A stretch of DNA of 64,000 nt. It comes from Lophium mytilinum (Eukaryota). The stretch covers positions 1,096,616 through 1,160,615 of the forward strand of contig MU004186.1 in assembly GCA_010093605.1 (NCBI GenBank), read 5' to 3'. Shown here in pieces: positions 3,354 to 30,102 of this stretch; the first letter of the stretch is position 1, and each line of letters begins with the position of its first letter. A program made the position numbers and the translations under genes. The notes beneath the pieces are model-generated. The model ran no database searches, had not been told where the DNA came from, and saw only the letters and a list, made by a program, of their open reading frames with translations.

Positions 3354-4398
3354 TTTCGGTCGATTCTGTGACTGTTGGTGCTATTGATGGGCGGAGGTGG
3401 ACGTGGGAGAGAGCTACCGTGGAGGAAAGAATGATGTTCTATATATTAGCAAATCCTGCTGTAAGGTGGCACTGCTGTTGTTCGCCTTCACCTTCGACTG
3501 TCGGCTGGCATGCTATCTGGGACACGTAAGGGGGTATGGTACTCGGCCATTAATCTGCGTACACAGTCATACCACTACTGCGGGATCTACTCTTGCTCTC
3601 GACGCCACTGCAAGGAATGCCCTCGCTCGTATGTCTTTATATGGTCAAAAGGTAGTCCAACATCCACTGCGTTGACCTTTACATCGTATTTAGAGTTTCT
3701 AAAGCCTGACGGAAAGCCCCAAGGTGCCTATACTTCTGTCTTGGTACAGAAGTCTGGAAATGCATGTGGCTACGAATCTTCATGAGACCTTAACAGTGAG
3801 AGGTATCTTCGGTGCGACGGCGACTTTCTTCATGATAGGATAGGGAACTTGATGCTGCCGTTTGTTATAGACATCAGGTCGATTGAAAGCCGTGAATGGA
3901 TCTCTCGTCTTTGAAAGCAGAATGAAGAAAATGATGTGTTATGTAGAGGCTACGTCGCTGCTCAGTTTACGAGCTGCGTATGTCTGTCTTTGAGGTTCGG
4001 TCTAGGTTTTCCAAGATTTGTAGCTATGTTTCAAGAAGCTTGGAGGCTCGTTTTATGTGCTTGATGCTTGTCAAGAAATTTTTACCTTTGCAAGGAGCGG
4101 AATGTAATCAATCGACCCTGATCGTGAGAGATTACTTTAGCATAGTCTCTGAAAGGTAAGACACAAGCAAAAAATTGTTTCTTGCAGATGACTTTTCGCC
4201 GTTACAGCATTCTTTAGACGATGCCTCCGGTGAATGATAGGTGAATGGTTGGGGCCAGGGACGACAGGGATGCAAGCTCAAAGCCCACGTGAGGACTAAC
4301 TAGATCACCACTAGCGGGCGATCTGCTTGGCAGTCGCGCTCCACGTAAACACGAGCGCGGGGACGTCATTGCAACCACCACATTCTTCATTCAACATC

Positions 4399-5513
4399 AT
4401 GCCACCCAAAGCAAAACGCGGTAGGGGTAGGCCCTCCAATGCGTCGCGAGGGGTCGTAAATGTAGCAAAGCCGACATCTATCCAGGCGAAGACGAGAGGC
4501 AGACCACCAAAGGGCGGACACTCGGCGCAACGACGACAGCCCGCTGAAGAAGACGACGATATGCCAGAACCATCCCGTAGATCCAAGCTAGGCCGACCTC
4601 CAAATCTAGCTCCAGAAGTTGCCGGCAGCCGGAAGCGCAAAGCTCGTGATGCTGAGGAGGAGGTCGAAGATGAACCAGCGTCAAAAAAGTTCCAGCATCT
4701 GCGAACGCGCAGTCGCTACGTCCCGCAAGCTGTCATCGCCGCAAAATGGCAGGCGCCCACCCATCAGATGCAGGAACAAATCAAGAACATATTCAAGACT
4801 GCATTGAGACCCGTGGTTGCGAGCCGACGGGATGAGCGGAGGAGGCTGGAGGCCGAACAGGTTGTTGGGGCCATGATCAGAAAACTGGAACAGCGACTGC
4901 CTAAGATGCCTTTTCCTCCTAATACGAAAGATACGGACTTCGATCTAGAGAAGGTTGTAGAGCGGAATGTATGTGATCCATGTCTTCAGACGGTATGCGA
5001 TGCTGACAGGGTACAGAGAATGCTCGAAAACCAGCTCACGCCTGCGATGCATTCGATCGATCTACTGAAGGCGGCGATTGAGAAGGAGGAGGCACAACTT
5101 GAGAGGGACAAAGAGGTGTTAGCGGAATTCGAGGAGAATGCAAAAGCGGAGAAGACGGCGCTCAAAAATATGAGTGTGAAGGTAAGGTCTCTAGCTCGTC
5201 GTCTGAGCTCTCTAACAGACTACAGCCCCATCCTATGCTCCGATTGCCGAAGAACTTTGAAATAGGAGATGATTCCGCGGAGGATATTGGCCTGGTGAGA
5301 CAGAAGACCGCTAAGCAGGCGCTCTTCGACGACCCCGACCCGGATTTTGCGCCGCTGCTCGACACCCTGCGGAACCATCTCGAGAGCATGCAAGGGAACC
5401 ACGAGCAGGTGCAGGGGATCGACGCCGTGATGCAGGAGGCGCAGGCGGCGCTGGACGATGTGCTGTTCACGCATGCAAGTCCACAGCAGTACGATTCAAT
5501 GAGCAGGCCATGA
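4399..5513 (+). CDS. Kinetochore protein of the CENP-Q/Okp1/Fta7 family
   Basis: Basic AT-hook-like N-terminus (RGRGRP, RGRPP), then LPKMPFPP..DFDLE..LENQLTPAMHSIDLLKAAIEKEE coiled coil and LRNHLESMQGN. Introns 4969-5016 and 5182-5225. Confidence 0.8.
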
Positions 5514-13062: not shown

Positions 13063-14136
13063 GCGGTGTTGGTGGACTGCCTGTGAGCTATGCGTGGCCA
13101 TTCATGGGATCGAGGAAAGCTTGAGCAAACTTCTTCATGCAGATTTTTTTGTACGGACGACCCGTCCGTAGACCTGTTACTTGTCAACATAGCTCACTGG
13201 TGTATGATCAGTCACAAATCGTCACTTCAATTTGACAACTCTAATAGACTATTAGGATACCCCGGAAGTTCTAAGCGTCGGCCACAAGCATTCGGCTCTC
13301 GATCCGATATAGGGGCTCCAGCAGTATACATCAGAATCACACTTCAAATCACGCCTCGTGATTCATCCTATGTCATCATCTTAGAACATCGTGGGGACTC
13401 TCATAGATTTCATGTACATGTCATGAGTGATCAACTGTCGACCCGATTTAGGAGCTTCAGAAATTCGCCGTGGAAGCACACTTCAGATCGCACCTCAATC
13501 GCGCCTATCGATTCATCATCACGAAACGCCTTGGAGTCCTTCGTAGGTACCATTACACTCTGTAGCAACCACACGCCCCGTGCGACCAAGCTGCTCCGTA
13601 TAATCCGACTTTTGGAGGGTACTTGAACGTCAACTCTGATTCAGAGCTCCCTTTCCTTTACATCACACTGTCTGATTTTTCGCAAAGTCACGGCGGCCCC
13701 CAAAGCTTCCGGGCTATGAGCATAAGGTCTAAAGATGTGAGCTCATACAGGAGCAAGGCCGATTGCATCAGTGGGAGACGGCTGTTTGGAATCTACAGCT
13801 CAATTGAGCAGAGTAAGTACAAACGACTGCAGGCTTAGTGAGAGACTCAGGACACCCCCAAACACCTCATACTCACAGGCCAATACCTCATGCACCAGCT
13901 CACACTTCACCCCCTCGCTTCACCCACTGTGACATTCGCCGTGTTTGCGCCTCCATCTGAAGTCCCCATCCCACCCCTCCACCAACTAGCCGCATCACCA
14001 CACTATCCCTTGTCTGCCCTCACCACCACAGCGACAGCCCGACAACGTCACCTACTCGCTCCAGTGCTTGTATACAGCACCTCATTCACACCGTCCTCCT
14101 CCTCACGAACCTCTCCTACCCGAAACCCGCGTCAGA

Positions 14137-15154
14137 ATGACCCACCAACTCCCCAAGAGCGAGTATCTAGAAGACGTCGACCCGCGCTTTGCCAGCGCCT
14201 TCCCACCCTTCGAGCCACCCCCACAGCCTCGGCCTGGCCGCCTACCACGCGCATACACGACCAACAACCCGCCCGGCAACATCGAGCTCGAGTCCCGTCC
14301 AGCCCTGCGAGAGCGCGCCCAAACCGCGCCGCCGCCTCTAAAGCTCGACCTGCCGCCCGACGACGGCCCATACGCCGCCGCTCTTCGGCCGGTAATGGCG
14401 CCCGCAGGAGCCTGTGCGGCACCGGCTTCGGGCCCGCAGGGTGCGCCGTTGCGGGTAGGATGGGAGAAGGCGGAGGTGGAAAAACAGCTGCAAAAGGCGT
14501 TTGACTTGGAAGAGGACCCAACGGGTGATACGGAAAAAGAGGAGGAGATTCGCCGCTGCCGGGGCCGGTTTCGTGAGGAAATGCGAGCAATGGCAGAGGA
14601 ACTGAGTGAGTTGTATGTGGAAATGGTGGCTTCGCGTGATGGGAACCTGCACGAGTTGGCCAAGGTAGCGACGCGGAGGCTCAGAGGTATTGTCAGGAGT
14701 TGTGACCGGCACCAGAAAGAGGCGAGGGAGAAGGGGAGGCGGGCTAATCTGAAGTATGTTGGAACCTCCTTGGAAGTGGGTTTGGATTTGCTGACCAGGG
14801 TACTCCAGACGGTTGGATGACGTTGGCAATGTGAAGGTGATGGCAGCGCTGTTTCGGGCGCTTTCCACATACACGAAGCAGATGCACACCTATTTTGAGG
14901 ATGTGAAAGAATACCGGCAAGAGGACATCAAGAATCCAGTCCGTGTCGTGAGAGACAAGTTCAGAGAGCTGAATCAGCTCTACCACGATATGGAATTGGA
15001 GCTCGGGAAAAGTCCTGAAGCACGTCTGGCCGAATCAGCATCAGCATTAGCGTCGATGCCAGAAGCGAGAGAGCCCAAAACAGAGTCCAGATTTCTCAAG
15101 CTGAAGAAGTTCCTGGGCGATCTCCTGACGTTCCGCAAACAACGCGAGACTTGA
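14137..15154 (+). CDS. Hypothetical protein (Pro-rich N-terminus, helical C-terminus)
   Basis: ORFs 14068-14820 and 14813-15154 are joined in frame by intron 14754-14808 (GTATGT..CTGAC..CAG). Start uncertain. Confidence 0.6.
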
Positions 15155-16810
15155 GCAGAATGTTCCTGATTTCTGGCCTGGCGCCAAGTTCATCGCCCGA
15201 CTTCTCCAGATTAGGATAAACACAGTATCGAAATTCTGGATCTAAAAAGTTGCTGTCGTCCTCCTCGACCTCGTTTACGGGCTCCATTTTTTGAAAGTCG
15301 AATTTTGGGGCGTTTTCTATTCGATCGTACAGTATGAACGAGACTGAGTACTGGGCCTTTTGAGAGAGAAAAGTGCTTTGGAGGTCCCCCACAGAGTCGA
15401 AGATGTTGTATAAAGAGCTTTGAATGGCATCTGTTTTTGTGACTCCTGATATTTCTTCCAGAGTGTCAAGTGTTGATTCCACAAGACTGTGAATTAGCAC
15501 ACGTTTTCCGTCTTTCAAAACATCTTTCAGGGGGCTCCCCTGGATCATGCGGATTGTAGACCTTCTCCAATCGCGAAAATCAGGCCCTTCGCTATCTGGG
15601 TTTGACATTGATTGTGAGTCTTGTTGGCCCCCCGGGACCTGGAAGCTTTCCGCGAGTTGACGTGTTTCGGACAGGATACCCGAAATCGGGAGCCCTACGC
15701 ACATGTTCTCTTCGAATATCTTCATGGCCTTGTAAGCTACTACAGCTTGGTAAAGACCTATCTTGTCAGCCGTTTCGAACGACCTAAATTTGGGGTGGAT
15801 GCTTTCGAGCACTCCGACTGTCTCTTTCTTCAGATTGCTAACGTCTAGTTGCAGTTGTGTCAGAAATCGTTGGCAGATCTTAATTCATAGTATTTACCTA
15901 GTTTGGACCGACGGAAGTTGCTTATAACCCATTCTCTGATACGATGATATAGTTGGTCCATCCTATCGACGAGATCACTGTCGGTAGCCTGGCTATCAAC
16001 GCGAGTCAGAGCTGATACGGTCTGCTTGAGCTCTAGTAGTTGCTTCCGCCTCTCTTGAACCTCTTTGTCCGCATTATGGAGGGCTTCGGCTTGCTTGTTC
16101 CTTTCTTTGATCCAATTGGCCCTCTCGTGCTCCCACTGTGCGCTCCATATGGTTTCACGGTCTAGAAGTTCTGCCTGGAGTTCTTCAAGCTTGTCCTTGA
16201 GATCGTAGACCTCCTCTTGAAGCTCGGTACGCTCCTTATTCCAGAAGCGGTGGCGGTCCGTCTCTTGCTCAAACTCCTTCAGCGCTCCGCCGGAGTTCGA
16301 CCTATATCGGTGGCCGGCGGAGTTGGATAGTTGCTGTTTATACGTGTCCACAGCATCCCGATACACTAGCTCATGTTGCTGAAGCTTTTTTATCTCGTCG
16401 GCCATAGACTGCTGCTCGCTGTGGGCAATCGCCAGTGCTTTCTCCAGCTCAGCAATCCGGTCAAGATGGGTCCGGCCATCGCTGCTGCTTACAAAAGGGT
16501 TGTTCGCGGCAGTTGGCAAAGATCGATCATCGTCGTCTGGGGGAGAGTGGCTGCTAGTGGGCCTGCTGCTCTCTCTCGATGATGCTTGGAGCAGCATCTC
16601 GGCTAAGCCGTGCTTGCGGCGGTGCAAATCGTCCTTCTTTGCTTTCCCGGTGGCTAGTGCAGCTTTGGGAGGAGCGCTGATGGGGCTCGGGGCGGACGAT
16701 GTCTTGCTGCTGCGGGAGGAGATCTTGCCGGGACGCTTGAGACGACTCGCGAGGTCTAGCGGGAAGTCAGTCAGGAACGGTACTGGCGGTAGCGGAGTGC
16801 AGCTTTTAGG
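15096..16810 (-). CDS. Coiled-coil protein with a putative GrpE-like C-terminal domain; 5' end unresolved
   Basis: Open frame from 16810, intron 15845-15897, long heptad region (ELQEEVYDLKDKLEELQAELL), and C-terminal KFDFQKMEPV...YCVYPNLEKSGDELG...ILLKSRVVCG. Confidence 0.75.
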
Positions 16811-17389
16811 CTATTGGAAAGCTTCTTTCGGGGTCGACATAAGCTGTCAATAGTGCTGGAGATCTGCGTACCTGATCCCTTCTTGTCCCCAGGCATCGCA
16901 ATGAGGGGGAGGGGCGAGCTACTTCCCGGCGAGCATGAGAGCTACAGACGTCTCTATCCTGGTATATGGCCACAGTGTCTTCCTCGGGAACAAGGAGTCG
17001 AGCCCGCGTCCTGGCCTCTGCGAAAGTTGGATGTCGGAGAATGAAGACTGGTACCTAGAGACGGAGATGTGGGGGAGAGAGTGATGGGCAGGGGTGTCAG
17101 CCACCATCTCAGCTTCGGCTTCGAGGGGGGTCTCCGCGCGCCCTCAAGGCAGTGCTGTCGAGCACCACTATTCGGGTGCCTGATCTCCTGCAATGCCCTC
17201 TCACCGCTGCTCTATATGACCGCCTGGTCCGCCTCTCCGTGCCTATTGCCAAACTTCCGCAGTTGCGCTCAATTGTCGACCAGCGTCGAGATATCCCAGC
17301 CCTTCAGCCCGAGTGCCTGCACTCTGCCGTCACACAGCCAGCTGAGACAGTAGGACCGGGGAAACGCGACTGCAGAAAAGGCCGGGACC

Positions 17390-19503
17390 ATGAGCGGCGA
17401 CATGCCAGCAAGGGGCTTCAACATTCCCTATACCTTCGACCCCTCCTCCAACGCCAGTATTGCGCCCGCCGCCAGCTCCGGCGCGTCTAAGCCGAGCTCA
17501 GCGCAGGACAGGCTTATAGTAGGCGTCGACTTCGGCACCACATACAGCGGTATGTCAGTAAAGAGACGCGCAATGGACTAAACTGATCGCGACAACAGGT
17601 GTTGCGGCAGTGTACAGTGCGACGCCAGAAGATGTGGATATAATCAAGACATGGCCCGGAGGCAATGGTAGAGAACCACCCAGCACGCGAAACTTTGGGA
17701 GAAGTGTTTGCTGAATGAAGCATGCAGGCATAACCTCCGACAAAGTCCCCACGGAAATCGCCTACGACATTCCCAAGGAATCCAATGGCACAGCTTCCGA
17801 CGCCGACAACAACAAGCCCAGGGCCATAAAATGGGGATTCCAATTCAAGCCGGAGGAATCCAGACTGCGCTGCATAAAGCTGTTCCTCGATAAGAATCAG
17901 AAGCTTCCCCACTTTGTCTCTCCTCTCGACACAGCCGCCCAGTTGAGGAAATACGAGCGTACTGTTCACGATGCCGTGTCAGACTACCTCACGCAAATAT
18001 ACAAGCATACCATGGACACTTTGACGCGTAGATATGGCGAGACCTTTATGAGCATGACAAAAGTGGAGTTTGTGCTCACTGTTCCTGCAGTATGGTCGGA
18101 CTCTGCCAAAGACGCCACGCTGAAGGCCGCAGAACGAGCGGGCATGGGTAACATTCACGATTTGAAGCTAATCTCGGAGCCGGAAGCTGCAGCCGTGTAT
18201 ACACTAAAAGCAATTCAGCCTAACCATTTGAAAATAGGGGATAATTTCATTGTTTGTGACGCAGGTACGTTGTCCGGTTTGCAGTTGCCATTATAACCAG
18301 GGCTCACACATTGCAGGTGGTGGCACTGTAGACTTAATCGCATACAAAATCACAAAGCTATCACCTCTCCAGGTCGAGGAGTCCGCCGTGGGAACTGGCG
18401 GCCTCTGCGGCTCAGCATTCCTCAACTATCGCTTTGAAGACCACGTCAAGAGCCGCATTGGCGAAGAACGCTACAATACGATGCGCGAAAAAAAAGCAAA
18501 GACGTGGAACATGGGTCTCAAGTACTTCGAAGAGTTTGTCAAGCGCAACTTCAATGAGGAAGAGCATGCGGAGGTCAACGTCCCCTTTCCCGGCCTACCA
18601 GACGACGAGGAAGCCGGGCTTGACTCTGGCTTTCTCATCATGTCAGCCGAACAGGTCAAGGAGATCTTCGAGCCCGTTGTAAAGGAGGTCATAGCTCTGG
18701 TCGAAGGCCAGGTAAACACTATACGACGTAAAGGGGGCGTCGTGTGCGGCATCGTACTAGTGGGCGGGTTTGGACAGAGCAATTACCTGTACAGCAAAAT
18801 GAAGGCGCATTTCAATACTGCGCCCCCACCACCATACACGGAGAGGCCGACGCATGCAGCAACCCTGAACGCGCCCCAGACAATCGAAGTCATGCACCCG
18901 ATGTATGCTTGGACAGCAGTCGTGAGGGGCGCAGTGCTGAGAGGGTTAGAGGGAAGCATGGTTCAAAGCCGAAGGAGCAGATGGCACTACGGAACAAGCT
19001 ACGCCACAGTATTTGACGAGGCACGACATCCGATCAGCGATCGCTACTGGAGTCCGCTTTGGGAGCGGTGGATGGTCAGTGACAGAATGCAGTGGCATAT
19101 CGCAAAGGTACAGACTTGAAGATGATCGTCAGCATCAAAAGCATAGAGCTAACCAGTGATACCTGATTAGGGCGCACAAGTTTCCGAGTCTCAACCGATC
19201 TCATTTCACTACACGCGCAACTTCCGCCCCGGCCAGTCCTTGGTAGTCGAAGACGACCTCATCGCCTGCGACGCCGACACCGCGCCGGACTCGTACCAGA
19301 AGGGCCTCATTAGCGTCTGCACCCTCACAACTGACCTGAACACCGTGCCGAAGTCGCTATTCACGCGGCTGACTACGACCAAGGGAGTCGAATTTGACAA
19401 CTTGGACTTCAGTCTAGATATGCGCATCGACAGCGCAGGGCTGATTTTTGAGCTGAAGGTGGATGGCGTGAGATATGGGGCTGTGTCAGCGAAGTTCCAT
19501 TAG
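17390..19503 (+). CDS. Atypical Hsp70 (HSPA12-like actin-fold ATPase)
   Basis: VGVDFGTTYSG, TVPAVWSDSAK, ISEPEAAA, CDAGGGTVD, LVGGFGQSNYL, WTAVVRGAVLRGL. No EEVD tail. Four GT..AG introns. Confidence 0.92.
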
Positions 19504-20160: not shown

Positions 20161-20873
20161 CTACTTCCTGATAGCACGAGAGTAGAACGCCAACTCTTCA
20201 CCCTCAAGCACGTAACCGTCGACACGACCGCTCTGGCCGGGCCTCGAGGCAACGACAGCGAAGAGACGACCGGCCTCGAACTGCTTCTCGAGCGCTGACT
20301 CGACCTTGCCTGTAGCAGCGACACGGGCAGCCTGCTTCTTCTCAACCGACTTGCTCTTCTTCTTCTCCTCTTCCTTCTCAGCGCCCTTGACCTGCCTCCT
20401 ACGGCCTAGCTGTGCTCCGTAGTGTGCCTCATACCACTGCCTGAACGGGGCAGCATCGATCTGGACGACAGCCGACTTGGTGAGGGTGTTGGTGCGGACG
20501 AGCTCGTTGTTGGAGGGATGGAAGGCGACGGCGATGACGCGGACCTTCTTGGCGATGCCCTCAGATCCCCACGAGAAGTTGCCGGAGTCGAGACGTAGGG
20601 CGCGGAATTTGCGGTTGCCGCCTCGGGTGCGGACAAGATGGATGCGCTTTGCGCCAATACGAGTATTGGCGGGCTGGCGACCCTTCTCGAAAGCTCTGAT
20701 GCCACATGGTTAAACATGGTAAAAGATGCAATCGGTTTATGCATACCTCTTCTTGCGATAGTATGCTCTCTTCGCACCAGTCGCGGCGCGCTTGTGGCGA
20801 GAGTCTCGTGAGATACTGCGAGCTGTCAGCGGGTTGTCTTGAGGTGAAATGTGGATGTAGATAGATACCCCAT
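20161..20873 (-). CDS. RPS8: 40S ribosomal protein S8 (eS8)
   Basis: MGISRDSRHKR...RKKRAFEKGRQPANTRIG...RALRLDSGNFSWGSEG...SRPGQSGRVDGYVLEGEELAFY. Introns 20816-20868 and 20696-20746. Confidence 0.97.
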
Positions 20874-22095
20874 GATTGCGGTTCCTGGGAAAGACTGCAG
20901 GCGGCCAAGTTAGCAGTGGCTCGTCCTCAAATTTGGAGAGACCAGGGATTTTGGAGACTGCAGGATTCGACACAGGACGGGCGGTGACCGGACAGGCTGC
21001 ACAGGTGGTAGGTTGGTGTTTCGTGCGCTTGCGAGCTGTGGTGGCCTCTGTCGTGGATTCCGCCCTCCTATTTCTCGTCCTGCGAGCTCTCCATATCCGC
21101 TGCCTGGTATGTACTGACCTGTCGGTGTCTTCCTGGGCAATCGTCGTTGGTCGGTGGTGGGTGATGAGGTTCTGAGAAGTCGAAAAGTTGCGGTTGCGAA
21201 ATCGCGGTGGCCTTTTTCGCTTAGCTTACGCCTTACCTAATCAAGAGTAGGCCTTACGGTCTTGGCATCCGTCCTTCAACCTGAGGTCCCGTTCAGCTCT
21301 ATCGGCACCTTCCAAATGACCATCCTCCTGACGTACTCACTCTGTACTAAGATGTTGCTTTAGCCCTTGCATCTCTCCAAAGCTCGCCAAAGCTTTGCCA
21401 GGTAGTAGATCTTTACTCGTTATGTTTCCTTATTAGCTGTCAGTGCACCCCCATTTTAGTCTTCCTAGCTGGCGAAGCTATAAATCTGTTCTACAATTAT
21501 TAGAACCTGCTGTTTTACGTCAGAATCTCTTCCGCGACAGCGACATCAGAGAAAATTTTGTCAACTCTTCCCTGCTCAGCAATTTCGCCCCCGGCCTCTC
21601 ACCATGAGGTTGGTCGACTGAGATACGGAAGTTTATCACACGCAACAAAAGCCTGTGCCCGTCGATCCATACAGAACCTAGACACCAGTCGTTGTCTGGT
21701 CTTTAATAGTCTTTCCTTTTATGTTAGCGCATATAGCTTACATAGCTCTGTTCGAAATGAACATCCTTCGATCGCGACTTTGCATTATCGCGGTTTTCAC
21801 GTGTTATTCCTAGCTAAAATAGGGATTACTTATGCCCGATAAGGACACAGTCATGGCGATCAACGTGATGCGGACAGACCGGGAGCACATCGCCATTTCA
21901 AAGATGACAAGGGTGTAGCCCTGACTGACATTAGAAATATATTGTCCCACCCGTCATCCCTATTATGATTATCTTTTGTTTCTCCAAAGTTATTTCTATG
22001 GTGGCACCTCACGACTTTTGCGGATTGTGTGTTTCACTAAAGTGTGGCTTCGGTACCCAATCTTACTGTCACACTAGCATCTTAGGGATGAAGTC

Positions 22096-22115
22096 GCCGA
22101 GTATAGTAGCTTAGC
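22096..22115 (+). repeat. Left target-site duplication of the LINE
   Basis: GCCGAGTATAGTAGCTTAGC matches 29578-29597 at 19/20 positions. The difference is TpG>TpA. Confidence 0.85.
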
Positions 22116-25100
22116 CCTCTCCGGAGGGCTGGATAGGAGTGGTTTTCCACGCCTATGCAGCAAAAAGGATGTTTAGAGCCCGCTGCACTTCTATAAGGCT
22201 CTTATAGAATAGAGACAACACCTCTATATAGTATTCTTAAGAATTAATTAGTATATACTCTAGAGTTTAACCCTACCGGCCCCGCGCCTAGGCAACAGGT
22301 AGGTATCCCTCTCTATTAAATAGTCTATTAAGCAAAATGTTATTATAAAGAAACTAGATCCCCTATTCTAACTATATTTCTCCCCTTATTTCTTAGTATA
22401 GAGGCTGTATATACCCCTCGCCCCCTCTATTATATTTACTAGTTAGTTAGCAGGTACTATTATAGTAAGAGCCTTCTAGTTATCTAGGTACTTAGTGTAG
22501 TTACTTTTAACCCGCTATAGATAGGAAAGGAAAATATATTTATAAAATATTAGGCGCAGGGCAGCGTAATGCGTAACTAGAGGTATAGGTAGTAAAGAGT
22601 AATAGAGGCCCTCTAGTATAGGTAGCTAAGGTTAATTTATAGAGTAATTAGATAGCCTCTCTATAGTACTATAGAAGGGATAGAATAGTACTATACTCTA
22701 TAACTAAAGGACCTTTTTTCTAGAGGGTCTAATAGTATATTAAGTATATAGTTATTTATTCTAGAGAAATTATCTTAAATAGTCTAGAGGCCCGGTACTA
22801 TTTAACTACTATTAAGTTATATAATCTATATCCTCCTAGCTCTCCTTTTTAGAGTACTTAAGAGGCATTTAGCTATAGAGCTCTACTAGTAGTAGTAATA
22901 AAGTTAACTATAACTTATTATATAATACTAAATTTTTACCTAAAAATCTTTTTATATAGTATCTATACACTAGTATAATAGGCTAGTTCTACCCGGGACT
23001 CTTAACTAAAGCCTTACTTTATAAGACTTTAGCAGTATAATAGCATAACTTAAGGGTAGACACTAGATATTACCTTCTAAGAGTGCTAGCTAAACTCTAT
23101 CTAGTATAGATAGAAACTAGTATATAAATATAAAATTATAATAGAACCTAGCTTATATTACTTCTACTTCTACCTTAGTAGCTTTATAGAGAATTAATAA
23201 GCTAGCCTCTACCTATATCTTACGCTTTTATTACTAGCTAAACTACCCCTACTTCTTCTTTAATAGCTTTAGGTTCCGCCCCTAATAGTAACGTTAATAG
23301 ACTAATTATAGAGAGAAGATAAGAAGTTTATATATAGTCTATTAGTATATTAGATTCTAATAACCTAGATATAAGGGCTAACTAGAGTAATATTTAATAG
23401 AATATTAAATTCTTTTTAAGGTAATCGCCTTTATTATTTAAACCTAGGGGATTTAAGAGAAAGATTAATAACTTTAATATAAGGTTTAAGATAATAAATA
23501 CCTAAAGAAAAGAGAAATAATATAATAAATAATCTAAAAAGTTAGCTATAGTATATAGTGTATTTATAGCTAGAGAGCCGCCTATAACGCTATACTATAA
23601 GTATAGAGTAATAGCTTTCTATTAGTTTTAGAATTACCCTTAAAATAATATAGCTAAAATAATTATTAGTAGTATCTCTAGGGGGGGTCTAAGTAATAGA
23701 GATAAGAATAATATATATAATAATAAGATAGAAGTAGACTCTTATAACCCTACTACTCTAAACTAGTATTTAGAAAAAGTTCTTTATAATAAACTACTAT
23801 AGAGGGGTAAAAAGCGTACGCATTATAAAACGCCCTAGGGCGGCGCCGTAATTAACTTAAATTTAGATCTAGTAACCTAAACCCTCTTTAATAAATAATA
23901 AATGCTATAAATATAGTTTATAGACCCTTTTACTCCGCAGGTAAGTAGAGAGATAGATAATACTTACCTACTATAACTAGCGGCAGAAATTATAGTAAAA
24001 TTAACGGCTAACCTAAAGCTAATACTTATAAGAGGTATTAAACTACTACTACTAAGTACGCTAGTACTATTATAATATACGCTAGAGCCTTCTATAGCTC
24101 TAGTAGAGCCTATAGCGCCTAGGGCGCCTAAGGCTTAAACTAAGCCTATAGTTTCTAAAGTATCTAAGGCTAAAGTACTAAGGGTACCTAAAGTTCTAAA
24201 AGTAAAGGCCTAGCTAAAGCTACCTAAGCCGCCTAAGTAGCTAAAACTACTAAAGCTACTAAAGGCTATAAAGGGTACTAATATATAATTAGGCCCTATA
24301 CTAATTTAGAACCCTAGAGTAGTTCTAGGTAAGCGTCTAACTAGCGCGCCCGGCCTTTTAGGCTAGGTTATAAATAATCTACTTCTCTACTTAAGATTAC
24401 TAGATAGGCTATATAGTAGTAAAAGTTATCTATTAGTTTCTAGTATAATTAATGCACTTCTAGACTTTAATATAATAAGCCTTAAGTAGATTATTAGAGT
24501 TACTCTATATAATAAACGCAGGTTCTTATATAAAGTTATAGTAAAAGATAAGAATTATATCTATCCTGCTATAGAGAAGAAATTTAAGTATCTAGATATA
24601 AATAGTAAACCTTATATAATTATAATTAAGCTCTACTACTCTTAAGGCCTCTAAATCTTTACTACTACTAATAATAGTAGCCTTTCTAATTTTAAGCTTA
24701 CATTAGTTCTTTTAGAACTTATTAGAAAGAAAGTCTAGAGTAAGATAGTTCTATCTATAGGGTGCTATTTCTAGATTAGATAGAGAGTATATAAAGGTAT
24801 ATAGAATAAGTTAAAAGTAATTATCTTCTAGAAGCCTTCTAGAAGTAGTAAGATTAAGTTTCTAATTAAGTTACTAGACTCTAGCTAATCTATAGCCTTT
24901 ATTATAAGGCTTTAGATAGAAAGTCTTTTTAAGGGGTGCAACTATTATAAACGCCTGTCCGTAGACTATAATATAATAGAGTGCCTCTTTCTTATTTCTA
25001 CTAAGTATAAGGGCCTTAAACTACCTAAGGCTATCTTAGAAAATATTTCTAATATCTATTAAAATAAGAAATATTAAGATTCTCTTATTAAATATTAGAT

Positions 25101-28100
25101 TACTATAGAATTCTACCTAGTTTTAAGCTTTCTTTAATATAATATAGTATACTAAAACTAATATCTACTTAATATAAGAATCTTTTCTAATACCTAAGAA
25201 AATAATTTTCTATAATATGCTATACCTATCTATCTCTCTTATATCTAGTAAGAACCTAGATAGATGCGGCGGGGGTGTAGTAATTATTATTAATATAAGT
25301 ATAATAAGCTAGCTTCCTATAGAAGAAAACGGGCCTTCTACTCTTATTTTCTAGAATAGCTAGCTTCTTATCTACTAATTAAAGTACTATAGGTAGACTC
25401 TTATAATTAGAAATATATATGCCCCGGCATAGTAATAAAAGTAAATATAGTAGCTCTAAGCTATAAATAACTATTTAGATAACTATCTACTACCTATACC
25501 TTATAATATAGTAGAGGGTAACTAGAACTAAGGCCTTATTATAATTAATACTATATCTAGAAAGCGGTGCTTATCTATTATAGCTAGACTATAATAGAGG
25601 CTAATAAGTAACCTTAGCTTTAGTAGACCTAATATAGTTAATAGATAGCGTAAAAAGAATTCTAACTTAATTTAATATACTTTTTCTATATAGTCTATTA
25701 GAATCTTATAGATAGACCGCATCTATATAAGATTAGACTAGATAGTAATAACTAAGGGGTAGGCTATTAAGCCTAGTAGACTATAGATAGATTATAAAAT
25801 AACTATAACTATAATCTAGATTAATAATAAGACTAACCGCAGTTCTAGTAGATAGAGGCTTAATCTATTAATTATTATATAGAAGGCGTTTAAAGATAAA
25901 TACTATTAATTCTTAATTAATAACTTTTCTAAACTTAATCCCCTTAGTAAATAGATAAAATTTAAGGTAATAGTTAAGAAAATAGCCGGTAATAGTAATA
26001 TAAAGTATATATATAATACTTTAGTATATAACCTCTAGAAACGCCGTAATAAACTCTTAGATATGCGCTAAACTAATTATATAGACGCCGCACTTAAAAA
26101 TTAGATTACTATAGTTAAATTCTAGAAGAAAGCGCTAGTAGATTAGTACTATAGAGACTATTTATATATAGCTATAGCTAAGTACCTTCTCTAGAATAAA
26201 AAACTAAATAAATAGTTTTTTACTAGGGCTAAGTACTTTAATACTACTAATATTAAAGCTTTAGTAGATAACTAAGAAGTACTATATATAGAACCTTAGA
26301 AACTGCTTAAGATTACTTTTAAGTTCTACGCGGGCTTATATATAGAATAATAGATAAATCTAAACTTATAGTAAAAGATTCTAAGGTATTTAAAATAGAA
26401 ATTAAAGCCTAAATATATTAATTAGCTTTTACAGTTAATTTTAGTTAAGGAGATAGAAGTATCTATTAGGCGGTTAGCCTTAGAAAAGTTGCCTAGTATT
26501 AATAGTATTATCTATAAGTTTTATAAATAACTTCTTTAATATAGACTTAAATCTAGAGAGATATTACTTTTAAAAGACTATATAAAGTCTCTTTTTAACT
26601 ATATCTAGAGGACTAGTAAACTCCCCGTAAATTAGATGGACAGTATTCTATTACTACTTTATAAGAATAAGGGCGTAGAGATAGATTTAAAGAATTATTA
26701 ACCCTTATTAGTAATAAATATAGACTATAAAATCTATATAGAAATTCTTATACAGCGCTTAGTTAAGGCGCTTAGCCTAGTACTAGATATTTAATAGTCT
26801 ACCTTTCTTTCTAGGCAACTTATTAATAATAATATCTAAATAATCTAGTATATTATTATAAACTAAAGAAAATAGACTATAGCTAAGAATAATAGAATAG
26901 CTATTCTATTTATTAATTAAGAAAAGGCCTATAACTAAGTAGACTATAGATTTATATAGTAGGTTCTTAAAACTCTAGAGGTTTCTTAGGTATTTATCTT
27001 ATAGATCTAGGTCCTCTATTAGAGTGCATATATAAGAGTAAATTTAAATAGCTTTATAGGGGATAAAATTCTAGTTAGAAGTAGTATTTACTAGAGTAAC
27101 TCTATTAGCTATCCCCTCTTTATAGCCGTAATAGAAGGGCTTACTAGTTACCTTACTAAGAAATAGTATATAAAGAGACTAAGTATTAGGTTATCTAACC
27201 TAGTAAAGATAACTATATATACTAATAATACTACTATTATTCTCTATAGTTAGGATAAGGTAAATATAGCTATAGAAGTGCTAGATATCTATAGTAAGGC
27301 TAGCGGAGTAAAAGTAAATTAGAAGAAGTTCTACCTTCTACTAATAAAGATAATAGAGGATAGTAGTAATAATAGTAGCTTTATTACCCTCCCGGATATT
27401 AAGTTAATTATACTCTAGAACCCTTATAAATATTTAGGTATTTCTATAGGGCTTAAGATTAATATATAGGTTAAAATATTCTAGAAGGTAGTAGTAGATA
27501 AGTTTTAAAGAATAGCTAGCTAGTAGCTTCTATATTTTATATTACTAAAAGAAAGAGTCCTAATTATAAATATACTAATAATATTCCTTCTATAATACGC
27601 GATCTATTTTCTAGACTTATCTAAGGAAATAGTAGATAATATAAAAAGAGAGTACTATAAATTAGTATAGAATAATAAGATAAAGAATATAGTAAGTATA
27701 GTTTACGCTTACTACCCCCCTAATAAAAAAGAAATTAGGTATTAGAATCTAGACTATATAGTTAAAGCCTTACTAGTTTTATTAGTTACATAATTAATAG
27801 CTAATCTAGACCTACCCTAGGTCTAACTAATATAGAAAGCTATTCTAGCCTCTATATCTACCTTTCTAAATAGCAACGCTATCTATACTCTATAGATATA
27901 ATATCTCTTATTATAAGTTTAGAACTTACTATTAGAATTAGCTAGAGCTTAAAGTAGATAGAAAATAATATATACTACTAAGGGTAATAATCTAGTACTA
28001 ATAATTCTACTATCTAAAATATATATAGATATACTTATAATATACTTCTAGTATTACCCTTATATTAATACGCACGGCCCTAGAGTTAAATAATAGAACG

Positions 28101-29577
28101 CGGTATTATAGAGAAGAATATAGGCTAAGAGAATATATATTATTAGAGATATTTAGAACTCTATCTTAAAATTACCTATTATACTAGCTAGACTAATAAC
28201 CTAAAATAGATATACTATAGATATAGTAATAAAAATAATAGTAGCTACTCTACTAAAAAAGTAGAGGGCTCTTCTAGATAGACTATATAAATAGATCTTA
28301 GAAAAGATTAGACTAAAGTTTACTACTAGTAACTCTAGCCTAGAAGATTCTAAGCCTTTTTTAGGCTTTATATATTAGAAAGCCTATTACTATATTCTAA
28401 AGTAACACCTAGCTAGAATAGACTTAAAAGGAGTTACTATTAAACCCCTTACCGCGTTTAAAATAATAACTAGAAATTCCTCTAAGCCTAGCGCTCTTTA
28501 GGCTAGAGTATATATATAATTTAAAATTCTAAAGGTAGAAGATCTTCTATAGTAATTCCTTTACTAAAAAGTAAAGACTAGAGAGAGCCTAGAGTAGGTT
28601 AAGCTAGAGTAATAGTACTATCTAATTTATAAATACAACCTTTTAATTAATTATATTTAGATTAACTATACTATTATATAGTATATATAGAAGAAGATAT
28701 ATAGAATATAGAATAAGACTAGAGGCCCCCTAGTACTAAGAATATAATTAATTAGTACTATAATTATACTAATATCTCTAAGCCTAAGCCTTAAGAAAAC
28801 TAATAAATAATAATAGTAGATTCTCTTCTAGACTATAGTCTAGGCTATCTAGAAGGTATATCTTTTATACTTATTTTTAAAGCTAGCCTAATATTAGAAA
28901 CTATACGCTATATATAGTTTATTCCGTATAATAGTCTAAAAATAGATACTTACTAATTAAATAATAAGTATCTATAAGTAATATTAGAATAAAAACTATA
29001 CTACTACTATCTTTAAGAAACTTTAAAATAAGAATCTACTTTACCTAAGAATATAATAAGGGCTCTAGTACCTTTAAGATAATAATAACCTTATAATATT
29101 ATAGTAGTAAGAGAACCTATTACTTATAGAAGATTTAGTGCAGGCTATATTAAAGAAAGGTTAAAATAGAGAATTATTTTAATAGAATACTAGAGTAGAG
29201 GAGAGGGTTTTTAAGTAATAAGTACTATAGTAATAGGGCTAGACTATTCTTTAAGTATATAACTATTATTAATATAATAGGCTCTTAGAGGTAGTATACT
29301 CTTTATAATATACTATACTACTATAGTCCTAAAATAGTAAGGGAGCTACAGTAAAAGGGTTTAATTCCCTTATTAGTATAGTAGTTAGTAATAGCCCCTA
29401 GCTACGCTATATATAGGAGGAGTAGATAAACTATATTTTAGCTTTTTTAGTATAGCTCGCACGGCTACTTAGCGGGTTAGATTAAGATTTTTGCATTTAG
29501 TTCTATTATATAATAGGCCGGAAGTACAAGCGGGAGGATCCTGTATGTAGTTTAGCCGAATAATAAAAGAAATTCCT
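22116..29577 (+). mobile_element. RIP-inactivated, apparently full-length non-LTR retrotransposon with L1/Tx1-type APE-RT ORF2
   Basis: Extremely TpA-rich and CpA/TpG-poor, with no intact ORFs. Back-mutated motifs: endonuclease (I.QE ~25170, GGVAII ~25272, NIYAP ~25412, IAGD.N ~25580) and RT (LYKNKG..DLKNYRPLS..N.DYKI ~26660-26735, DQEKAYDRV ~26915, QGDP.SC.LF ~27092, YADD ~27220, SGAKVNW.KS ~27302, KYLG ~27428). Flanked by a 20-bp TSD. Confidence 0.92.
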
Positions 29578-29597
29578 GCCGAGTATAGTGGCTTAGC
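29578..29597 (+). repeat. Right target-site duplication of the LINE
   Basis: GCCGAGTATAGTGGCTTAGC, directly after the A-rich element end AATAATAAAAGAAATTCCT. Confidence 0.85.
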
Positions 29598-30102
29598 GGC
29601 GGGGATATTACAGGCTATGCATGCCGCCAACACTCAGCTAAGACCAAGGCAGTTAAAACGGTCAATACGAACCCCCTAACCACGGAACCACCAGCCATCT
29701 CTTACTCCGCAATCTATCCCACGCAGAGAACCCTTTCAACAGTCGTTCCTCCTCAGAGCTCATGCGCATTCAATGATCTAGCTCAATCTAAGTAAATGCC
29801 ATGTAACACAGACTTTCCTGTTTTCACACTTCAGCCGCAGTTGGTGTCTTTCGTGCAGCGATCGCGAGGACCTCTACCACGGTACGAGAGGGATCGCGTG
29901 GATTCCTTCGGCTCATTTCCTTCCCATCTCATATCATGATCTCCTCCCTGCTGTGTTTCTTTCCATCTTTCACCTAAAGGACTGTTTTTGCGAGTACACT
30001 ATCGTTCCCAGTGCCTTGTGTGTCCACAATTGTGGATCCAGAAGTGACACATTCAAGGGAATCCCTACCACGTTTGCTGCCGCCTCTATACTTTCTTCGC
30101 CC

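Follow-up and report, generated by a model that had tools for sequence, protein, structure and literature searches.

Hsp70s of the HSPA12 type are widespread, and the Hsp70s of the eukaryotic cytosol use nucleotide exchange factors of the BAG, Fes1/HspBP1 and Hsp110 kinds, which work by attaching to the ATPase domain at lobes IB and IIB. The locus described here lies in a 64,000-nucleotide stretch (the window) of the genome of the Dothideomycete Lophium mytilinum (assembly GCA_010093605.1, contig MU004186.1, positions 1,096,616 to 1,160,615), and pairs a gene for an atypical, Hsp70-like protein of 629 amino acids (aa) on the plus strand with a divergently oriented gene for a 543-aa protein, hereafter the partner, on the minus strand. 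We favor, with confidence that is about evenly balanced, a reading in which the partner is a dedicated cofactor that would bind the atypical Hsp70 at its ATPase domain and have a GrpE-like mode of action, probably that of a nucleotide exchange factor. According to two reports, GrpE and GrpEL1 open the ATPase domain by placing their beta-wing on lobe IB and their short helices on IIB (PMC11685456, PMC12987570). A 2026 review states that the function and mechanism of HspA12 are unknown (PMC13580251), and no cofactor for HSPA12-type Hsp70s was found in the literature searched.

The partner resembles GrpE, Mge1 and GrpEL1 (PF01025) in the predicted order of its parts, with long N-terminal helices followed by short helices and then a small C-terminal beta domain, and its gene adjoins its Hsp70 gene in the manner of the bacterial grpE-dnaK linkage. 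The folds of BAG, HspBP1/Fes1 and Hsp110 are unrelated to that of the partner, and none of them was among the fold-search matches listed. The predicted placement of a short partner helix on IIB and of a beta hairpin on lobe I is also like that described for GrpE and GrpEL1 in the same reports (PMC11685456, PMC12987570). A first-pass annotation of this DNA had proposed an Hsp70/GrpE-like pair, an interpretation that is partly supported by the results given below.

The Hsp70-like gene (17390..19503, plus strand) has five exons, at 17390-17549, 17599-17667, 17728-18264, 18317-19107 and 19171-19500, and a stop codon at 19501-19503. The coding sequence of the partner gene (15096..16896, minus strand) runs through 16896-16872, 16755-15898 and 15844-15099 to a stop codon at 15098-15096, with introns at 16871-16756 (116 nucleotides, nt) and 15897-15845 (53 nt), and its spliced minus-strand translation is identical throughout to the 543-aa NCBI protein BU16DRAFT_322264 (P0001). 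All six predicted introns, the four of the Hsp70-like gene and the two of the partner gene, have GT..AG ends on the strand of their gene and are skipped exactly in contigs assembled from X1, a public run whose kind was only guessed as RNA and from which only the intron-skipping contigs were used; therefore both genes yield spliced transcripts and the gene models hold. The first-pass annotation had correctly recognized an atypical Hsp70 divergent from a gene for a coiled-coil protein, both being where it had placed them and on opposite strands. The close divergence that it reported stands as well, while its estimate of no more than about 580 bp between the coding regions gives way to 493 bp from ATG to ATG, because the earlier figure was measured from a long open reading frame (ORF) and missed the 25-nt first exon of the partner gene.

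The shared divergent intergenic region occupies 16897..17389, and X1 contigs extend into it as far as 17031 from the partner gene and 17228 from the Hsp70-like gene, positions that are contig ends rather than transcript ends. A conserved block at about 17183-17223, close to the Hsp70 side, contains a CAATG box and a TATATGACC-like element and is common to five Dothideomycete loci. At the other end of the partner gene, the X1 contig that covers it (3443 nt) runs about 1.6 kb beyond the stop codon, below 15000 to about 13400, into a convergent neighbor at 13990-15154; this may reflect an overlap of the two genes at their 3' ends or a merger during assembly.

The plus-strand protein is, judged by its sequence, an atypical Hsp70, and the "HSPA12-like" label rests on names given by the sources. 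Both phosphate motifs of the ATPase domain are present, as DFGTTYSG and DAGGGTVD, and ATPase domains of Hsp70s in the Protein Data Bank (PDB) match the protein at E 1e-8. The Hsp70 family profile PF00012 matches exon 3 of the window alone at E 2.6e-4 and the full-length close relative P0089 at 2e-12; on P0092 the match covers profile positions 1-375 of 599, which is the ATPase domain only. No PF00012 match that would indicate a canonical substrate-binding domain was found past profile position 375 of 599 in the scans of P0089 and P0092, and exons 4 and 5 alone matched no Pfam family. The C-terminal part is thus non-canonical, and the protein ends in ...SAKFH, without the EEVD motif, as the earlier annotation had it. 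The family is extremely conserved: of 752 relatives identified, the 120 best have 76-94% identity over exon 4 and belong to Dothideomycetes, lichen-forming classes and Geoglossomycetes.

Conserved linkage of the two genes was surveyed in metagenomes. Hsp70 exon 4, used as the query, had 146 relatives there, and the analysis was made on the 80 best loci; their taxa could be inferred only by likeness to a few named proteins. These 80 loci fell into 51 groups at 97% or higher identity of the exon-4 ORF, 29 with flanks too short and 22 informative, and the partner was sought in their six-frame ORFs with a hidden Markov model (HMM) built from alignment A2. The adjacency, for which a synteny survey had been suggested at the outset, proved to be conserved. 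The partner is directly upstream on the opposite strand, head-to-head, in 14 of the 22 informative groups, and 4.5-6 kb downstream in four others. Three groups have no partner within at least 9 kb upstream and at least 7.6 kb downstream, and the remaining one has none upstream, its downstream flank being short. Partners in the head-to-head groups share only 30-50% of residues with named members from Pleosporales or Sordariomycetes, and since for some the identity to any named member, Dothideomycete or Sordariomycete, is only about 30%, the arrangement spans deep branches. We take the pair to be a module of two divergently transcribed genes that is old among filamentous ascomycetes.

As a control, all window ORFs of at least 70 aa were compared with the 80 related loci; no gene at 4.3-13 kb was present in more than 6 of them, and the immediate outer neighbors of the pair (ORFs 13990-14820 and 20161-20709) were found in none. 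The second of these ORFs, on the minus strand downstream of the Hsp70-like gene, reads like a 40S ribosomal protein S8e gene when its translation is judged by eye. Beyond the partner gene, a proteasome-subunit gene (PF00227) and a RINGv E3 gene (PF12906) recur in 10 and 9 of the 51 groups, respectively, for example at L001:2043-4556, L006:4031-6480, L008:4009-6382, L023:4203-6552 and L069:2253-4634, and in inverted form in L044-L046, L049 and L052. With the pair these two genes make up a four-gene neighborhood with a protein-quality-control flavor, and they do not adjoin the pair in the Lophium window. In the lineage with a downstream partner, a conserved ORF of about 290-330 aa lies between the Hsp70-like and partner genes in six locus groups (L034:7041-7958, L045:13074-14066, L046:13800-14669 and relatives), and these intervening ORFs have no Pfam match.

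A complex of the two proteins was predicted, as had also been suggested at the outset, here as a heterodimer of P0089 and residues 230-543 of P0001. Three runs scored 0.75, 0.76 and 0.76, against 0.38 for the best of three controls, and had at least 93% of their contacts in common, with a partner pLDDT of at least 81. In calibration, 51 of 78 solved complexes and 2 of 108 mismatched pairs came up to the mark used for such predictions, and, among eukaryotic proteins, so did 2 of 126 unrelated pairs and 39 of 65 solved pairs that had no like complex in older structures. The score of 0.76 tops all mismatched pairs that passed (0.34-0.59).

On the Hsp70 side the predicted interface comprises residues 60-83, 178-187 and 315-348. 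By alignment with PDB sequences, the first segment corresponds to residues ~22-38 of Hsc70, and the third to the IIB helix and hairpin at ~256-290 of Hsc70; the second is, like the first, in lobe I. The Hsc70 ~22-38 counterpart includes what we take to be the loop that DnaK needs for GrpE binding. On the partner side, predicted contacts are made by the stalk end and the junction that follows it (248-269), by the first short helix (275-290), and by the regions of the FD..ME motif (484-486) and the K.GDE hairpin (509-524), so that the hairpin of K509, G511, D512 and E513 sits in the interface. The closest predicted pairs join partner helix 276-279 to IIB residues 325-333, and junction 266-269 and strand 522-524 to the Hsp70-like loop 78-82. 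The interface coincides with conserved positions of the partner: mean conservation is 2.75 bits inside it and 1.97 bits in the rest of the partner domain (Mann-Whitney p = 1.1e-5), and 11 of the 30 most conserved partner positions fall within it, where 4.1 would be expected.

If this model is right, the stalk end, the first short helix of the C-terminal domain and the beta hairpin of the partner would bind across the nucleotide cleft of the Hsp70-like protein, touching lobe I and subdomain IIB, the very pair of surfaces that is wedged apart by GrpE. Such binding would most likely serve to control nucleotide exchange, that is, ADP release, an exchange function that we infer. GrpE-like docking on lobes IB and IIB of the ATPase domain is, for this pair, a property of the model only (0.76 versus 0.38).

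The partner belongs to a family that is recognizable by sequence and evolves rapidly. A scan of 1.84 billion representative proteins found 82 representative clusters that carry the partner domain at E<=1e-3, 37 of them at <=1e-10, and in all 82 the domain, about 240 aa long, is C-terminal. A profile search with alignment A3 (105 matches) included Sordariomycete members in Verticillium, Colletotrichum, Fusarium, Ophiocordyceps and Grosmannia, some of them named "Involucrin repeat protein" in UniRef, and reached no protein with a Pfam family. Conserved motifs throughout alignments A2, A3 and A6 are W..T, Q.A.Y, FD...ME, FP...K.GDE.G and N....KA.V. Loci whose Hsp70-like proteins share about 90% identity have partners that are only about 35% identical. 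Pfam searches of the partner, made with the two window exons at E<=1 and with P0001 and 16 C-terminal pieces at E<=10, gave no family match and coiled-coil noise only; GrpE was not among the 25 commonest families listed in a Pfam scan of 57 partner members; and the PDB sequences matched by profile A1 were keratin and other coiled coils, with no GrpE among them.

From an alignment of 57 sequences, AlphaFold2 predicted residues 1-101 of the partner to be disordered and residues 103-259 (16004..16474, minus strand) to form a stalk of two long helices, at 103-155 and 173-259, with pLDDT >90 over most of both. These helices are compatible with a coiled coil, and only coiled-coil proteins matched the stalk in a structure search. 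The conserved C-terminal domain that follows, residues 262-535 (15123..15997, minus strand, split by the 53-nt intron), carries the family motifs, the last two spaced as FP...K.GDE.G....N....KA.V, and is predicted to consist of seven helices, within 267-455 of the full-length model, and six strands, within 459-532. When residues 262-543 were modeled alone from 49 sequences, the same succession of seven helices and six strands was obtained (pLDDT 90.4, pTM 0.90). The beta region, residues 459-532 (15132..15353, minus strand; strands by DSSP), includes the part that was likened earlier to the GrpE head. The first-pass annotation had deduced a long coiled coil, a helical region and a beta end, which agree with the AlphaFold helices and strands at 103-155, 173-259, 267-455 and 459-532, and had read the C-terminal motifs KFDFQKMEPV, an acidic loop, RYCVYPNLEK and ILLKSRVVC, all of which are in the translation.

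The structure searches were divided on its further proposal of a divergent GrpE-head fold. In a search independent of Foldseek, GrpE was the top PDB structural neighbor of the predicted C-terminal domain: human GrpEL1 (9bls_B) stands in row 1 with listed values of 6.0, 5.7 and 112, Geobacillus GrpE (4ani_A) in row 3 with 5.6, 4.7 and 105, and E. coli GrpE (1dkg_B) in row 5 with 5.5, 5.3 and 104. The alignments to GrpE have 7-13% identity and an rmsd of about 5 Å, and are the only ones that extend over the first helix as well as the beta region, reaching the latter at model residues 272-279. Foldseek, on the other hand, found no PDB match at E<=1e-3 for either the full-length or the domain model, and a GrpE-DnaK entry at rank 34 for the domain model (E 0.47) is noise. 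VIA-align of the full-length model was uninformative on the C-terminal domain, its matches being filled by coiled coils at residues 101-263. The FD...E pattern had been compared by eye with GrpE. The best hhalign path is collinear and agrees with that comparison, placing FD...ME with FDP..HQA and FPg with GY, but is not significant.

Several observations weigh against a GrpE-like cofactor, and the first of them concern kinship. We aligned E. coli grpE with PF01025 genes from sampled genomes (34 sequences, median pairwise identity 36%), and hhalign of A6 against this alignment scored 16.8 (P 0.18), with 15.6 for the reversed control; 60 column shuffles had a mean of 13.0 +/- 2.3, and two of the 60 reached the real score. 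GrpE family membership is therefore unsupported by sequence. PF01025 was also absent from the Pfam tables for the window exons, P0001 and the 16 C-terminal pieces, and the predicted domain has about five helices beyond those of GrpE. A narrower form of the cofactor reading, in which the partner is a true, highly diverged GrpE by descent that carries inserted helices between its short helices and its beta-wing, would account for the rank of GrpE among structural neighbors and its exclusive coverage of both ends of the domain, and for the collinear hhalign path. A reversed control that scores about as well as the real alignment, the missing Pfam match and the low structural identity speak against common descent, which we consider quite unlikely.

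The other counterpoints concern the complex and the linkage. P0089 stands in for the Hsp70-like protein of the window in the predicted complex, to which it is identical at 570 of the 631 positions aligned and at 41 of the 42 that form the interface; the complex is a model, to which fold-level memory of solved GrpE-Hsp70 complexes could have contributed; and the conservation test is not fully independent of the language model behind the prediction. Of the 17 groups whose upstream flank is 8 kb or longer, 9 by hand count retain the proteasome gene, which lies 2-6 kb further out, and 14 retain the partner, 11 of them in the strict head-to-head arrangement. From the contrast between 9 and 14 of 17 we conclude that the region is a slowly rearranging block of which the pair is the most stable part, and some of the linkage may be inherited gene order yet to be broken up. 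Taken to its limit, this view would deny the two genes any functional link and treat both the complex and the GrpE ranking as false positives. We think it unlikely: the outer neighbors have been replaced in the Lophium window while the pair stayed together, the complex scores above every mismatched pair that passed calibration, its interface coincides with the most conserved partner residues, and the PDB family that topped the Foldseek-independent search is the one that had been predicted beforehand from the neighboring gene.

A different kind of functional link is suggested by the ESM Atlas neighbors common to P0001 and P0248, a divergent member from Grosmannia. These are MIEAP (PF16026, mostly molluscan clusters) and the plant GIL1_IRKI_C (PF24994), the C-terminal domain family of GIL1/IRKI, whose members are DUF641 proteins. 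With predicted models on both sides, TM scores by query and by row are 0.53/0.48 for P0001 and 0.45/0.46 for P0248 against MIEAP, and 0.54/0.56 and 0.48/0.57, respectively, against GIL1_IRKI_C. One study describes Mieap as a 538-aa protein with disordered and coiled-coil sequence at 92-311 and a structured C-terminal half (PMC10845071), and the partner, at 543 aa, is similarly laid out, being disordered at its N-terminus and then running through two long helices into a C-terminal half that is structured. On this basis the partner might be a client, scaffold or adaptor of the ATPase, either a MIEAP-like former of assemblies that the Hsp70-like protein remodels or a means of recruiting the ATPase to a site in the cell, and the conserved linkage and predicted binding would fit equally well. 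We rate this explanation as rather improbable, though worth keeping in view. Unlike MIEAP and GIL1_IRKI_C, the partner has no HMM match to PF16026 or PF24994 (window exons at E<=1, 16 C-terminal pieces at E<=10), the TM scores are only 0.45-0.57, and the Atlas feature scores of 0.80-0.81 are leads only, as a third of shuffled proteins reach that level. The predicted contacts, moreover, lie on the exchange-factor surfaces that flank the cleft, whereas a client would be expected at the C-terminal part of the Hsp70-like protein. A Mieap/SPATA18-HSPA12 link was not found in the literature, which for SPATA18 was searched at the level of titles and abstracts.

The Atlas also aligns the partner C-terminal domain, with TM 0.57-0.66 by query, to a cluster of basidiomycete proteins that are 628 aa long and of which 57% have the MMR_HSR1 GTPase family; this suggests, from models, that the domain also occurs fused to a GTPase. 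Elsewhere in the window, an ORF at 4315-5262 (plus strand) has a CENP-Q domain (PF13094, E 5.8e-19), and an 8-kb block at 22001-30000 has 26-32% G+C, versus 50-57% elsewhere, and may be repeat DNA degraded by repeat-induced point mutation (RIP).

Returning to the cofactor reading, a GrpE-like solution outside the organelles would be unexpected, given that BAG, Fes1/HspBP1 and Hsp110 serve the eukaryotic cytosol. The C-terminal domain of the partner may belong with the MIEAP and GIL1/IRKI-type domains. Such kinship with MIEAP, orthologs of which are reported absent from fungi in one study (PMC10845071), would extend the finding to animals. At its broadest, and we regard this as distinctly unlikely and speculative, the fungal partner, animal MIEAP/SPATA18 and the plant GIL1/IRKI domains would form one eukaryote-wide superfamily of GrpE-like cofactors, all built from a coiled-coil stalk and a head of helices plus beta structure, that dock on non-canonical Hsp70 ATPase domains; the fungal head-to-head pair would then be a preserved genomic trace of an HSPA12-MIEAP partnership that is also present in animals, and would supply a mechanism for both orphan families. 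For HSPA12-type Hsp70s themselves, a conserved and physically plausible partner, predicted to sit on the surfaces used by exchange factors, provides a direct and cheap experimental handle.

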